Positions 1 to 7,019 of a stretch of 64,000 nucleotides of DNA are shown in pieces (the stretch's first letter is position 1; each line of letters begins with the position of its first letter). The DNA comes from Deltaproteobacteria bacterium (lineage in GTDB: Bacteria > Desulfobacterota > Binatia > HRBIN30 > JACQVA1), in NCBI GenBank assembly GCA_016210005.1, contig JACQVA010000127.1, positions 835-64,834 on the forward strand. Direction: 5' to 3'. The notes under the pieces are model-generated. The model worked only from the letters and a program-made list of their open reading frames with translations. It had not been told where the DNA came from and ran no database searches. A program made the translations under genes and the position numbers.

Positions 1-2498
1 TCGCGTGAGGCATGGGCGCCGTCGAGCTTGCAGACTTCCCCAGCCTCACATACGCCGTCGTTGTCGCCGCCGGCGGCCCCGTTGTCCTCGATCTTCAGGC
101 CGACTAGTTCGTTGTACTGCTCGTGGTGTTGAATGTAGTCGCCGGATATCTTCGCCCCGTTGGTAAGAATAGCGGGGTTTGCATCACCGCCGCACTCTGC
201 CCCCTGGCCGGCGGTGTTTTCCGCCCTGATGTGGCACTTACCGCAGGCGTCTTTCGATGTACTGAGGCCCATGTTGTTCCCGGACGGGTCCTTGACGTGA
301 TTCACGCCCGTGCCGTGGCAGGCCTCACACTGCACGCCAGTGAGGGACCAGGAGCTATAGAATCCGCCGTGGTTCGCCACCGGGCTCATGCCGGTGCTAG
401 CCCAGGGCTCGGTTCGGGCCGGTGAGAGATCGGTCCCCGGATCGGTGTAGCAAGAATATCCGGAGGTCGAGACGATGCCGTTGGTGTTGTGACAGATAGC
501 GCACTCGTACTTCTTGGACTGACCCGAAGAGGAGCCGTAGGTGGACCAGTCGGCCCGTTTGCTCGCGGGATCGAGAGTCGGGTCGGCCGCCAGCATGTTG
601 AACTGGGCGGCGTAGCCACCGACCAACGAGGCGGCGGACCAGACGTATCCGCTCTTGTCGTCACCGGTGCTGTCTTTGATTCCCCACCTGGCCTTCCAGC
701 CGAAGCCGCCGATCACATAGTTCACGGCGGCCCAGTCAAGCTTGCCGTCGCTGTCGCTGTCGATCTGGCTCGTTGGCACGCTGGCATCGGCATTGAGCGC
801 GGCGACGGACACGATCGTATTGTCCCCGCTGCTGGTGAGCAGAGCCGAAAGCGGGTCCGAACTGCCAGTCGGGGTTGCCCCGGCGGTCATCCTGACCTTG
901 TACGGATGCCCGGACTTGGTGAATTCGTCGTACTCCGCGGCATGGCAACCGGCGCAGGTGGTGGAGCCGACATAACCGCTGTCGATGCCCGTCACGTTGT
1001 GATAGCCGGTTGACTCCGTCTGTGCCGTCGCCTCGTCCGTCGGGCCGGCGATGACGGAACCGTAGATGTTGCTGTCGTGGCACTTACCGCAGGCGTACTT
1101 GGGCGTGATGTAGTTCTGCGCCACGTTAGTGAAGCCATTGCTTCGCACAATGCTCGATCCCGTCGGATTGATGTCGAAGATGTGGGTCTTCAGATCGCCC
1201 TTGCGGCCCCAGCCCGCCGTCGAGTAGTTGATAGCCGTCTTCGTAGCCTCGGCCATGTGACAGTCGACGCAGGTAACGGAGGCATGATCGCCATGCTTTC
1301 CGGTCGGGTTCGCCAACGCACTGGCCGCGTCCGCATCCGCCTGCGCCTTGTGACAGTCGGCGCACTGTTTTCGGATCGCACCGGGCTCCGGATTGGTGTT
1401 GTCGCCAGTGATGCCGAGGGCCGTTGCCACTGCTCCGATGACGCCCACGGCGCGCTTGTGGGGGTCGTGGCAGGTGACGCAGGTCAGCGACTGGTGGACG
1501 CCGTCCTCACTCAAGCCGTGCATCTCGTTGTACTGTTCGTGATGATTGATGAAGGGATCGGCGATCTTGGCGCCGTTGGTCAGGATGGCTGGATTCGCAT
1601 CCCCGCCGCATTCGGCACCGGTGCCGGCGGTGTTCTCCGCGCGGATGTGGCACTTGGCGCAGATCTCGACGCCGCCGGACAGCGTAAGTACGCTTTGCGT
1701 GACGGAAGCACCCGCGTCCGCGTGCCCGGTACTACCGGCGTTGCTGCCCTTGCCGTGACAGGCCTCGCACTGGACGCCGTCGAAGGTCCACTGGCTTCTG
1801 TAGCCGCCGATCTTGCAGGCTTCACCGGTCTCACAAACGGTGTCGTCGTTGCCGATGCCGTCGCCAGCGATTTCCTCGAGTTCCATGCCCGGGTTCGTCA
1901 ACAATGGCTCGGAACGGTTGGAGGTGAGGGGGTCGGTGTAACAACTGTAGCCGTAGGTAAAGATCGACCCGTTCGTCTGGTGGCAGGTGGCGCATTCGTT
2001 CTTCTTGTCCGTATTCGCGTTGTATGCGGACCAGGAGCCGTTCTCGAGGTTGTACTGGCTGGTTCCGGTCCAGACATAACCCGTCTTCACAGCGGCGGGG
2101 TCATTCACTCCCCATCGGATCTTCCAGCCGTAGCCGCCGATCGCATAGTTGATGGCCGACCAGTCGAGATTCAAACTCCCGTCGCAGACAATGAGTCCAT
2201 CGCCGCAATCCTCACCCAGCGTCAACGTGTCCAGGCCCAAGCCGGGCGGCCTCGGAAACAGGCCCGTGAGGGGGTCTGTGGGGAGGGAGCCGCCGGTGTG
2301 CCGGTACTTGTAAGGGTGGCCGGTCTTCTGGAAGCTCATCTTGTTCGTCGCCGCAGAGCCGTCATGGCAGGTCAGACACGCGGCGGTGCCCACATAGCCG
2401 CCGTCGATGCCGCTGGCATGCGCCGACGCGGCGAGGAAGACGAACAAACACGCCGCCATGTAGTGGACTGGCGACAGCTTCTTGCTCGGTTTCTTCAT
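1..2498 (-). CDS. Secreted multiheme c-type cytochrome, at least 12 CXXCH heme sites in window. Partial: the C-terminal part runs off the window start.
   Basis: The reverse-complement translation from ATG at 2498-2496 gives MKKPSKKLSPVHYMAACLFVFLAASAHA, which is a signal peptide. The GGAGAG RBS lies at 2501-2511 (RC). The frame stays open down to position 1. I counted twelve CXXCH motifs: CLTCH, CATCH, CEACH, CAKCH, CVTCH, CADCH, CVDCH, CGKCH, CAGCH, CAICH, CEACH and CGKCH. The long ORF is missing from the track because it has no in-window stop codon. Confidence 0.8.
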   Translation of the reverse strand, partial: MKKPSKKLSPVHYMAACLFVFLAASAHASGIDGGYVGTAACLTCHDGSAATNKMSFQKTGHPYKYRHTGGSLPTDPLTGLFPRPPGLGLDTLTLGEDCGDGLIVCDGSLNLDWSAINYAIGGYGWKIRWGVNDPAAVKTGYVWTGTSQYNLENGSWSAYNANTDKKNECATCHQTNGSIFTYGYSCYTDPLTSNRSEPLLTNPGMELEEIAGDGIGNDDTVCETGEACKIGGYRSQWTFDGVQCEACHGKGSNAGSTGHADAGASVTQSVLTLSGGVEICAKCHIRAENTAGTGAECGGDANPAILTNGAKIADPFINHHEQYNEMHGLSEDGVHQSLTCVTCHDPHKRAVGVIGAVATALGITGDNTNPEPGAIRKQCADCHKAQADADAASALANPTGKHGDHASVTCVDCHMAEATKTAINYSTAGWGRKGDLKTHIFDINPTGSSIVRSNGFTNVAQNYITPKYACGKCHDSNIYGSVIAGPTDEATAQTESTGYHNVTGIDSGYVGSTTCAGCHAAEYDEFTKSGHPYKVRMTAGATPTGSSDPLSALLTSSGDNTIVSVAALNADASVPTSQIDSDSDGKLDWAAVNYVIGGFGWKARWGIKDSTGDDKSGYVWSAASLVGGYAAQFNMLAADPTLDPASKRADWSTYGSSSGQSKKYECAICHNTNGIVSTSGYSCYTDPGTDLSPARTEPWASTGMSPVANHGGFYSSWSLTGVQCEACHGTGVNHVKDPSGNNMGLSTSKDACGKCHIRAENTAGQGAECGGDANPAILTNGAKISGDYIQHHEQYNELVGLKIEDNGAAGGDNDGVCEAGEVCKLDGAHASR
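108..2400 (-). repeat. Intragenic tandem duplication with a period of about 1.42 kb inside the cytochrome gene
   Basis: Nucleotides 108-243 align with 1526-1660 (for example ...cgttggt.agaa/gatggc.gg.tt.gcatc.ccgccgca...gtggcacttaccgca / gtggcacttggcgca). The protein repeats the blocks GYSCYTDP, GDANPAILTNGAKI and HHEQYNE. A further copy may lie off-window. Confidence 0.6.
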
Positions 2499-2620
2499 GA
2501 TGCCTCTCTCCTTTTCGCCTTCCTTCAGACCTCTCACAGTCGCCCGATCGGAGACTCGGACGCCATCCGATGGAGCGCTCGGGCCACAACCACCGCCGAC
2601 CTTGCCCCGCAGCGCCTCAC

Positions 2621-5638: not shown

Positions 5639-7019
5639 GGAGCGAGTCCTCATCGTAGACGACGAAGAAGGCATGCTCGAAGTCTGCGCCGATATCTTGG
5701 GCAAGCTGCCTGAGACGACCATCACCCTTGAGCGGAGCAGCCGCCAGGCCGCCGAGCTGTTGGCCAAGAACAGCTTCGATCTGCTGATCACGGACATCCG
5801 CATGCCCGAAATCACCGGCGTCGAACTGCTCCGGATCGCACGCGAACGCGATCCCGACATTCCGGTCCTGATGCTGACCGCGTTCCCGGCCGTAGAGACG
5901 GCCGTCGAGAGCATGAAGCTGGGCGCAGCCGACTACATCACCAAGCCCTTCTTGCCGGACGATCTGCTGGTCACCGCCCGTCGCTTGCTGGACGAGCGCC
6001 GCTTGCGCCAGGAGAACACGCTGCTCGGGCGCCAAGTGGAGCGGCCCTATTGCTTCGACGAGATCATCGGTACCAGCCCGGCGATGCAAGTGGTCTTCCA
6101 GAAGATCCAGCGGGTCTCCGCCACCGACGCCGACGTCCTGATCCTGGGCGAAACCGGAGCGGGGAAGGAGCTGGTCGCGCGCAGCATTCACCGGCACAGC
6201 CTACGGAGCAACGCACGTTTCGTGCCGGTCGACTGCGGCGCGATTCCGGAGAACCTGTTGGAGAGCGAGCTCTTCGGTCACGAGCGCGGCGCCTTCACCG
6301 GCGCGCACATGCGCAGCCTCGGGCTCCTGGAACTGGCCGACGGCGGCACCTTCTTCCTCGACGAAATCGGCGAGTTGCCCCTGTCCCTGCAAGCCAAACT
6401 GCTGCGGACTCTACAAGAGCGCAAGTTCCGCCGTGTCGGCGGCAAGGAGGAGATCGCCGTTAACGTACGCGTGATCGCCGCCACCAATCGCGACTTGGCG
6501 GTCGAGATGCGCGAGCGGCGCTTCCGCGATGACCTCTATTATCGTATCAACGTGGCCCGCATCGAGATCCCGCCGCTGCGCGAGCGCCCCGACGACATTG
6601 CACTGCTGATCAATCACTTCGTCGAGCGCTACGCCGGCGAGATGGGCAAGTCCCACGCCACGGTCGATCCGGCGGTGAGCGAAGTGCTCTCGCGCTACCG
6701 TTGGCCCGGCAACGTCCGCGAATTGCAGAATGTCGTTAAACGCACGCTGACGATGAGCCACCGTGCCGTCATCTCGCTCGACGACCTGCCCGACGAGATC
6801 GTCATCCAGGCCCACGAGCTAGCTGAAGAGAATCACGGCGGGTTCTTCCAGCTGCGGGCGCAGCGGGTGATGGCCTTCGAGAAGGAATACCTCGCGGAGC
6901 TGCTCGAACGCTGGCAGGGCGACGTCTCGCGCGCCGCCCGCGAAGCCCGCCTGCCGCGCGGTACGCTCTACCGGCTACTGAAGAAGCACGATCTTAACGC
7001 CGACGACTTCCGCGCCTGA
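5631..7019 (+). CDS. Sigma-54-dependent transcriptional activator (NtrC family: REC, AAA+ and Fis HTH domains)
   Basis: MSRERVLIVDDEEGMLEV is the receiver. GETGAGKE is the Walker A motif. ERGAFTGA is the GAFTGA sigma-54 contact motif. The C-terminus is a Fis HTH. The ATG at 5631 overlaps the kinase stop (ATGTCTAG). I rejected the track start at 5337. Confidence 0.9.
   Translation: MSRERVLIVDDEEGMLEVCADILGKLPETTITLERSSRQAAELLAKNSFDLLITDIRMPEITGVELLRIARERDPDIPVLMLTAFPAVETAVESMKLGAADYITKPFLPDDLLVTARRLLDERRLRQENTLLGRQVERPYCFDEIIGTSPAMQVVFQKIQRVSATDADVLILGETGAGKELVARSIHRHSLRSNARFVPVDCGAIPENLLESELFGHERGAFTGAHMRSLGLLELADGGTFFLDEIGELPLSLQAKLLRTLQERKFRRVGGKEEIAVNVRVIAATNRDLAVEMRERRFRDDLYYRINVARIEIPPLRERPDDIALLINHFVERYAGEMGKSHATVDPAVSEVLSRYRWPGNVRELQNVVKRTLTMSHRAVISLDDLPDEIVIQAHELAEENHGGFFQLRAQRVMAFEKEYLAELLERWQGDVSRAAREARLPRGTLYRLLKKHDLNADDFRA

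Follow-up and report, generated by a model that had tools for sequence, protein, structure and literature searches.

A predicted sigma-54 two-component regulon for a secreted 16-heme cytochrome with a conserved gene for a stand-alone Fis-type DNA-binding protein on its enhancer

We analysed a 64,000-nucleotide stretch (hereafter the window) of contig JACQVA010000127.1, positions 835 to 64,834 of the forward strand, from the metagenome-assembled genome (MAG) GCA_016210005.1 of an uncultured Deltaproteobacteria bacterium, whose regulatory circuit is predicted here from sequence. The first 7,019 nucleotides carry the 5′ part of a gene for a secreted multiheme c-type cytochrome, three palindromes, a small gene for a stand-alone Fis-type helix-turn-helix (HTH) protein, which we call sHTH, and a divergent operon encoding a receiver-only response regulator (REC), a membrane sensor histidine kinase (HK) and an NtrC-type activator. 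The genes, domains and motifs, their conservation and the co-occurrence of the palindromes with one HTH family were established by computation. Taking the locus as a whole, we think it rather likely that it constitutes a sigma-54 two-component regulon for a secreted 16-heme cytochrome, with sHTH probably tuning the response.

The cytochrome gene lies on the minus strand (1..2498; 832 of at least 1111 codons) and was recognised by translation, CXXCH count and Pfam. Its reading frame begins with an ATG at 2498 and stays open to the window start, encoding 832 aa with 12 CXXCH motifs in the window and 16 in the full gene, which bears out the initial annotation of a secreted cytochrome with twelve or more hemes. 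An identical gene on contig L001 carries the 16 CXXCH motifs as two 8-heme modules followed by a C-terminal PKD-like beta domain, and the NCBI record (P0165) is named 'PKD domain-containing protein, partial', with 1111 aa. The signal peptide ends in …AASAHA/SG, without a lipobox, and the Pfam matches comprise Cytochrome_C7, Cytochrom_c3_2, Paired_CXXCH and a partial match to MtrC/MtrF domain II/IV (42.6 bits). In the decaheme MtrC/OmcA proteins, ten hemes are held in two pentaheme domains and a lipoprotein signal and a partner porin are present, whereas the window cytochrome has 16 CXXCH motifs and no lipobox; no porin was seen in the related locus L033. The family, which includes two-module 16-heme proteins of ~1100-1280 aa and one-module proteins of ~500 aa, is entirely uncharacterised, and its named records come from Nitrospirota and "Deltaproteobacteria" MAGs.

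Upstream of the cytochrome gene, the -24/-12 element reported in the initial annotation is present as AGGCACGtgtcTTGCG at 2636..2621 on the minus strand, an exact GGCACG-N4-TTGC match with a predicted transcript start near 2611 and a leader of ~113 nt. A perfect TGTCAC-N6-GTGACA palindrome had also been placed upstream of this element; the perfect copy is there, but it is not single, as three palindromes begin at 2688, 2757 and 2787. Site 3 is the perfect copy TGTCACgtagctGTGACA (2688..2705), site 2 reads CGTCTCatcgatGTGACA on the minus strand (2757..2774) and site 1 reads TGTCACgtcggtGTGAAT on the minus strand (2787..2804), with centres ~62, ~131 and ~161 bp upstream of the -24 GG, respectively. 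When up to two mismatches were allowed, the palindrome had 7 matches against 1.7 expected, three of them clustered in 2688-2804. Sites 1 and 2 of the window are 30 bp apart from centre to centre, and this spacing is 29-31 bp in all nine clusters examined (the window and eight other metagenomic loci, given here by L-numbers). Three helical turns, roughly what this distance amounts to, would be expected for a pair of dimers that share a face of the DNA.

The intervening gene makes the region more than a spacer. A gap of ~750 bp had been described between the cytochrome gene and the operon that faces it, and the two are indeed divergent, with 762 bp from the cytochrome ATG to the REC ATG, but the gap is not intergenic: most of it is taken up by an HTH_8 gene at 2789..3073 on the minus strand, with a sigma-54 promoter of its own, between the two. 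Because this conserved HTH-only gene separates the cytochrome gene from the REC operon, the logic of the circuit is changed. The gene encodes the 94-aa sHTH (98 aa from an alternative GTG start at 3085) and appears in the NCBI annotation as HY699_11860, a 94-aa hypothetical protein from a "Deltaproteobacteria bacterium" MAG. The frame is closed by a stop six codons upstream of the GTG, which means that sHTH cannot belong to a larger protein. Its only Pfam match is HTH_8 (25.8 bits against a cut-off of 22), and it shares 70% identity over 60 aa with the C-terminal DNA-binding domain of the window activator, including an identical recognition helix, LPRGTLYRLLKKH.

An AlphaFold (AF2) model of sHTH had a mean confidence (predicted local distance difference test, pLDDT) of 79, rising above 90 for residues 30-80, with helices at residues 29-51, 56-62 and 67-76, while residues 1-28 had low pLDDT and no secondary structure and are predicted to be disordered. 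The model superposes on the DNA-binding domain of Aquifex NtrC4 at 0.7 Å and on E. coli Fis at 0.9 Å over 49 residues; no PDB sequence matched sHTH at E<=1.

Orthologues of sHTH occupy the same position upstream of an orthologous large cytochrome gene in two further lineages, represented by P0002 (94 aa, L003/L004) and P0017 (88 aa, L030-L032). Across the three lineages, synonymous sites are saturated (proportion of synonymous differences, pS, 0.56-0.78) while non-synonymous divergence is ~0.25; the ratio of non-synonymous to synonymous substitution rates (dN/dS) is 0.12 and 0.30 for two of the three pairs, the third being too saturated. The HTH core is 69-78% identical across lineages and the N-terminal tail drifts. 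Judged from these substitution patterns, the protein is under purifying selection in all three lineages. In L003 the sHTH gene also has a good Shine-Dalgarno sequence. Site 1 of the enhancer overlaps the last codons and the stop of the sHTH gene in the window and in L003 (1010-1027), and begins 8 bp past the sHTH stop in L030 (567-584). Where they overlap, TGTCAC…GTGA encodes …VTSV* in the window and …VTAV* in L003, and it may be the DNA site, and not the protein, that has kept the C-terminal tail of sHTH conserved.

On the far side of sHTH, the REC, HK and NtrC-type genes of the initial annotation (3260..3652, 3782..5638 and 5631..7019, all on the plus strand) were confirmed with Pfam and NCBIfam. 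The NtrC-type activator (462 aa) overlaps the kinase gene by 8 nt and has the order REC - AAA+ - HTH_8 (Pfam Response_reg 91 bits, Sigma54_activat 238 bits and HTH_8 27 bits), with the receiver aspartate (DIRMP), Walker A (GETGAGKE), Walker B (DEIGE) and GAFTGA motifs. By domain order and motifs it belongs to the group I enhancer-binding proteins of bacteria. It reached no equivalog cut-off in NCBIfam (AtoC, NtrC, ZraR, GlrR and others), the best being AtoC with 443 bits against 714. Among the scanned open reading frames of the window it is the sole sigma-54 activator, those left unscanned being shorter than 310 aa and thus too short for one.

The sensor kinase (618 aa) combines a PilS-like six-transmembrane (6-TM) domain, an insert of ~140 aa, HisKA and HATPase. 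Its PilS-type domain (PF25323; 31.9 bits against a cut-off of 27), which is also recorded for the orthologue in L033, suggests sensing within the membrane. The insert, residues 212-352 between the 6-TM domain and HisKA, had no Pfam match and is missing in the 454-aa orthologue of L033; it could be a degenerate PAS-like input domain. The single-domain response regulator (130 aa; Pfam Response_reg 97 bits) is 36% identical to the receiver of the activator, and its gene is absent from the orthologous loci L003 and L033. We rejected the idea that it is the other half of a split ancestral activator, given the 36% identity and the large family of single-domain regulators. The GC content at third codon positions (GC3) is 0.64-0.68 in the sHTH and receiver-only genes (0.64 in sHTH) against ~0.8 in neighbouring genes; the low values could reflect overlapping cis-elements, low expression or a separate origin.

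Three -24/-12 promoters accompany these genes. Besides the cytochrome promoter (2621..2636, minus strand), CGGCACGgagcTTGCG lies before the HTH-only gene (3113..3128, minus strand) and GGGCACGacggTTGCT before the REC-HK-activator operon (3149..3164, plus strand), the latter as had been claimed, and both are likewise exact GGCACG-N4-TTGC matches. The exact motif occurs 3 times in 64 kb against 0.54 expected, each time within 2622-3163, so the three matches are more than chance. All three score 9/10 against TGGCAC-N5-TTGCW, with GG and GC 10 bp apart. The sHTH and operon promoters stand back to back, their -24 elements ~22 bp apart, and the -12 C of the sHTH promoter precedes the ATG by 41 nt in both the window and L003, and by 40 nt in L030. 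The operon promoter gains support from L035 (120-2098), as a similar sigma-54-like element, cGGAACGgccgTTGCA, lies there upstream of a 59%-identical REC orthologue. This REC orthologue is not followed by a kinase gene; CGGCACGcatgTTGCC comes next instead, and then a gene for a secreted CXXCH-containing protein.

No sigma-70 promoter matches were found in 1-9000, an Rfam scan of the window gave no match, and no minus-strand terminator was found between sHTH and the cytochrome gene. The segment 3095-3113, just downstream of the sHTH -12, forms a perfect inverted repeat (GCTTGG-N7-CCAAGC) that spans the predicted start; it is not conserved in L003 or L030 and might act as an operator or fold into a 5′ hairpin in the RNA. 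The sigma factor itself is encoded in the window by a trans-acting gene outside 1-7019, rpoN (30129..31616, plus strand), with strong Pfam matches to Sigma54_AID, Sigma54_CBD and Sigma54_DBD. It is preceded by an lptB-like ABC ATPase gene (29248..30120), and a sigma-54-like sequence, GGGCACccgctTTGCC, at 29132-29147, ~100 bp upstream of lptB, could make expression of an lptB-rpoN operon sigma-54 dependent.

To the right of this regulatory region, the window encodes three further sensor kinases, namely a GAF-PAS-HK-REC hybrid (11435..13990), an HK (35266..37119) and a PAS-PAS-GAF-HK protein (42523..44808); a TGGCACGtggcTAGCT motif is found at 37111..37096, at the 5′ end of the second of these. 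Five open reading frames of 294-744 aa with gene-like codon bias (23853..25772, 38253..40487, 45562..46446, 48719..50635 and 56063..57130) had no Pfam match at E<=1e-4.

Comparison with other loci ties the palindromes both to the cytochrome promoters and to the HTH family. In alignment A4, which spans the end of sHTH to the start of the cytochrome gene in the window, L030 and L003 with a mean identity of 53%, blocks of conservation are confined to sites 1-3, the -24, the -12 and the Shine-Dalgarno sequence, the -24 and -12 blocks of the cytochrome promoter thus being retained in both L003 and L030. Twelve sites, those of the window, L003, L025 and L026, served to build a weight matrix, with which loci outside this set were searched. 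It located three sites each in L027 and L030, where an HTH-family gene lies next to them and a cytochrome gene follows behind a -24/-12 element; two in L028, again beside an HTH-family gene and a -24/-12 element; and five in L033, beside the kinase-activator operon, with -24/-12 elements in front of a cytochrome gene and of an FKBP gene. It found no sites in the controls L005-L022 (~110 kb) or in the rest of the window. The same type of promoter precedes cytochrome genes in L025-L027 and L033, the L028 contig stopping before the next gene. The recurrent module therefore consists of an HTH-encoding gene or kinase-activator operon, two sites and usually a third, a -24/-12 element and a cytochrome gene, and in all nine clusters the palindromes co-occur with genes carrying the recognition helix LPRGTLYRLLKKH. 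Cytochrome homology was rejected as a predictor of the module: the homologues in L005-L007, retrieved by a contig scan with the cytochrome N-terminus, have no palindromes, no sHTH and no convincing -24/-12 upstream, and these loci were kept as negative controls.

The closest view of the activator and its sites comes from L033, where the activator is 84% identical to that of the window over its full length and the kinase orthologue is 65-67% identical. There, the kinase-activator genes are divergent from a 16-heme cytochrome gene, and the 274-bp gap between them holds two sites and CGGCATAtctcTTGCG. Farther downstream (6582-7836), three more sites and GGGCATGcctcTTGCG precede a gene for an FKBP-type peptidyl-prolyl isomerase, and CGGCATGctccTTGCG precedes a 64%-identical orthologue of the window cytochrome gene. 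As far as sequence comparison goes, L033 shows a more direct tie between this activator orthologue group and the palindromes than the window does by itself. A different palindrome, CTGTGTG-N8-CACACAG, lies upstream of the promoter of this orthologue, the second 16-heme cytochrome gene of L033.

Taken from these comparisons, the prediction that a local two-component, NtrC-type circuit drives the secreted multiheme cytochrome through sigma-54 and an upstream palindromic enhancer is well supported. The self-contained, probably autoregulated circuit of the initial annotation thus stands in part: conservation supports cytochrome control by the local activator well, but positive autoregulation of the REC operon is no more than plausible.

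From the same patterns we infer which protein would bind which site, in which direction sHTH would act and whether the operon would regulate itself. The PilS-type membrane kinase (3782..5638) would phosphorylate the activator (5631..7019), whose dimers would occupy the three TGTCAC-N6-GTGACA sites (2688-2804), where three dimers could supply one AAA+ hexamer, and the hexamer would open the sigma-54 closed complex at 2636..2621 by ATP hydrolysis, yielding cytochrome mRNA. Of the back-to-back promoters, that at 3128..3113 would drive sHTH and that at 3149..3164 the REC-kinase-activator operon, and sigma-54 dependence of the latter would add positive autoregulation. sHTH would be expected to bind the three sites of the activator or to form mixed dimers; binding to the same sites is predicted because its recognition helix and its dimerisation helix match those of the activator. 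Since sHTH has no ATPase, its most likely effect would be to damp or time-limit activation, and a sigma-54-dependent sHTH would accumulate only after activation, producing delayed negative feedback. We favour, tentatively and at somewhat less than even odds, the reading that sHTH competes for the enhancer sites or forms mixed dimers with the activator. The receiver-only protein, for its part, could serve as a phosphate sink. A bolder version, possible but in our estimate rather unlikely, has the activator bracketed by two sigma-54-driven half-protein decoys with back-to-back transcription, an HTH-only competitor or poison and a phosphate-draining receiver, which together would give a self-limiting pulse, with sHTH as a second NtrC-to-Fis step that is independent and bound to one locus.

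Several observations weigh against this account. The sHTH promoter of L030 has GA in place of the near-invariant GG, a change that would be predicted to weaken or kill a sigma-54 promoter, and the operon promoter is weakened as a candidate because its counterpart in L003 has lost the -12. The weight-matrix scan of the window found no enhancer sites next to the back-to-back promoters, and therefore the same activator would have to loop from the cytochrome sites to both of them; these sites lie 345-460 bp upstream of the REC-operon promoter, yet downstream of the sHTH promoter. No sHTH occurs in L033, which has the same regulon, so sHTH would be dispensable for activation. Because the sHTH domain is no closer to the window activator than to other activators of the family, the same specificity is likely, not certain, and the sequence data are compatible with either an antagonistic or a helping sHTH.

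The origin of sHTH bears on how it is to be read. In alignment, Met1 of sHTH falls on a Met inside the activator, where the AAA lid ends (LTMSHRAVISLDDLPDEIVIQ), and the full-length activators of the same HTH family in L025-L028 stop at precisely the position where sHTH does. On this alignment evidence, the best reading is that sHTH preserves the 3′ portion of an ancestral activator gene. A recent copy of the window activator domain was rejected, as the identity matrix shows sHTH no closer to it than to other activators of the family; by these sequence distances, the split is old. In L029 (634-1019), an HTH-only open reading frame of the same family (P0004, 100 aa) abuts an unrelated divergent gene and has palindrome-like sites after it; no recognisable -24/-12 was found there, and P0004 may be an independent truncation or a decaying copy. 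A metagenome scan with the sHTH alignment returned, the known orthologue aside, mostly unrelated full-length activators and no new stand-alone copies. A search of 1.8 billion representatives gave many short Met-starting matches without lid motifs, which, lacking genomic context, are indistinguishable from fragments, and only P0017 was verified. P0015/P0016 (64 aa) and P0006 (131 aa) were rejected as independent sHTH examples, their contexts resembling frameshifted or fragmented activators.

Such an origin raises the alternative that the sHTH reading frame is the dead remnant of an ancestral activator gene that once stood directly upstream of the enhancer sites, the circuit consisting of kinase, activator, enhancer and cytochrome. 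The shared end point with the L025-L028 activators and the alignment of Met1 with the internal lid Met would both fit a remnant, as would the low GC3 of 0.64, the L033 regulon that works without sHTH and the L029 frame without a recognisable -24/-12. We nevertheless consider it quite improbable, since the frame is intact in three lineages despite saturated synonymous sites (dN/dS 0.12 and 0.30), the core has stayed 69-78% identical with the N-terminal tail free to vary, the -24/-12 keeps its distance to the ATG and the Shine-Dalgarno sequence in L003 is good.

If sHTH is a functional protein, its effect could also be positive, as a Fis-like DNA bender that aids the enhancer or the looping to the cytochrome and back-to-back promoters. 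An identical recognition helix argues that sHTH should sit on the activator sites rather than on a separate bend site, no further conserved block lies between the sites and the promoter, and the related L033 needs no such factor; we regard this architectural role as unlikely, although the model does have the fold of the Fis and NtrC DNA-binding domains, no consensus for integration host factor (IHF) occurs in 2480-3300, half-site centres 12 bp apart imply bent DNA, and Fis helps LuxO in sigma-54 activation at the qrr promoters (PMC11407668). Very improbable indeed, in our judgement, is that the palindromes are operators of a different regulator, for instance a repressor, with the -24/-12 elements served by a distant activator and the local two-component system controlling something else. 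The window does encode three other sensor kinases, and enhancer-binding proteins can act at a distance or from solution, but each of the nine clusters pairs the palindromes with LPRGTLYRLLKKH-helix genes and the controls lack them, with 50-190 bp between them and the -24/-12 elements downstream they occupy the classical position of enhancers, and the gene at 5631..7019 encodes the only sigma-54 activator among the scanned frames.

The regulon that we favour, in which the local kinase and activator drive the cytochrome and sHTH tunes the response, is itself known in kind, as sigma-54 and enhancer-binding-protein control of respiratory cytochromes has been described in Geobacter (BccR-cbcBA). 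In Geobacter sulfurreducens, the NtrC-type activator BccR (GSU0598) is divergent from the sigma-54 cytochrome operon cbcBA and is required for its induction as the redox potential falls, and the operon carries an extra response-regulator gene (bioRxiv 10.1101/2021.04.15.440034). The window and, more plainly, L033 similarly have an activator divergent from a cytochrome gene with a -24/-12 element, a likeness in the arrangement of the genes. The targets differ, as cbcBA encodes an inner-membrane b/c-type quinol oxidoreductase with 7 hemes and the window gene a secreted 16-heme PKD protein. A PilS-type kinase encoded with the activator, an enhancer of three sites and a paralogue consisting of the HTH alone, behind a sigma-54 promoter of its own, likewise set the window apart from BccR as described.

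A PilS-like 6-TM kinase with a sigma-54 activator as partner also recalls PilS-PilR of Pseudomonas, Geobacter and Myxococcus. PilR sites, in work attributed to Jin et al. 1994, reportedly contain a TGTC core, as the window palindromes do, and Geobacter PilR is said, by the title of a paper, to affect genes needed for Fe(III) reduction. PilR sites, however, are tandem repeats whereas the window site is an 18-bp palindrome, and instead of pilin, the window, L003, L030 and L033 have multiheme cytochromes and an FKBP gene as their targets; no pilin gene was seen beside the cytochrome gene.

In its site architecture, the enhancer resembles glnAp2, where NtrC sites I and II are strong palindromic dimer sites about three helical turns apart (PMC5159524). 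Like glnAp2 of E. coli and Salmonella, the clusters have paired sites (29-31 bp apart) and further sites upstream of the -24/-12, but half-site sequence, signal and target differ between the two. The NtrC operon of E. coli and Salmonella is autoregulated, and we know of no DNA-binding-domain-only paralogue of NtrC.

Two small proteins offer parallels to sHTH. Fis, a 98-aa nucleoid protein, is held to derive from the NtrC DNA-binding domain, according to the account of Morett & Bork 1998 given in PMC11407668. sHTH, with ~95 aa, likewise consists of the HTH_8 domain alone with a long dimerising helix, but it did not match the Fis model in NCBIfam, and where Fis has an N-terminal beta-hairpin arm, the 28 N-terminal residues of sHTH are predicted to be disordered, without an arm. 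Moreover, Fis is global and growth-phase regulated, whereas sHTH is locus-specific, its gene standing behind a sigma-54 promoter and on one regulon's enhancer. sHTH is thus not a Fis orthologue; it looks like an independent repeat of the NtrC-to-Fis evolutionary step. HgtR of Geobacter is a small repressor with an RpoN-dependent promoter, encoded beside an enhancer-binding protein gene (PMC2817479), and offers a functional analogy, that of a small sensor-less DNA-binding protein behind a -24/-12 promoter that presumably depends on the adjacent activator. HgtR was rejected as a homologue of sHTH, being a predicted ribbon-helix-helix protein (PMC2817479). It represses sigma-70 genes elsewhere and its fold is unrelated to the activator domain, whereas sHTH is placed on the enhancer of the activator itself.

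What goes beyond these systems is the conserved gene for the DNA-binding domain alone, placed on the enhancer behind its own sigma-54 promoter. Open-access papers yielded no account of an enhancer-binding protein with a DNA-binding-domain-only paralogue placed at its enhancer. The locus extends sigma-54 control of cytochromes to a 16-heme, PKD-bearing secreted family of uncultured groundwater Nitrospirota and "Deltaproteobacteria", and supplies an enhancer motif, a site architecture and members of the regulon (two cytochromes and the FKBP isomerase in L033). If sHTH does antagonise the activator, it would provide a simple new form of negative feedback in enhancer-dependent transcription and would represent a living intermediate for the proposed transition from NtrC to Fis.

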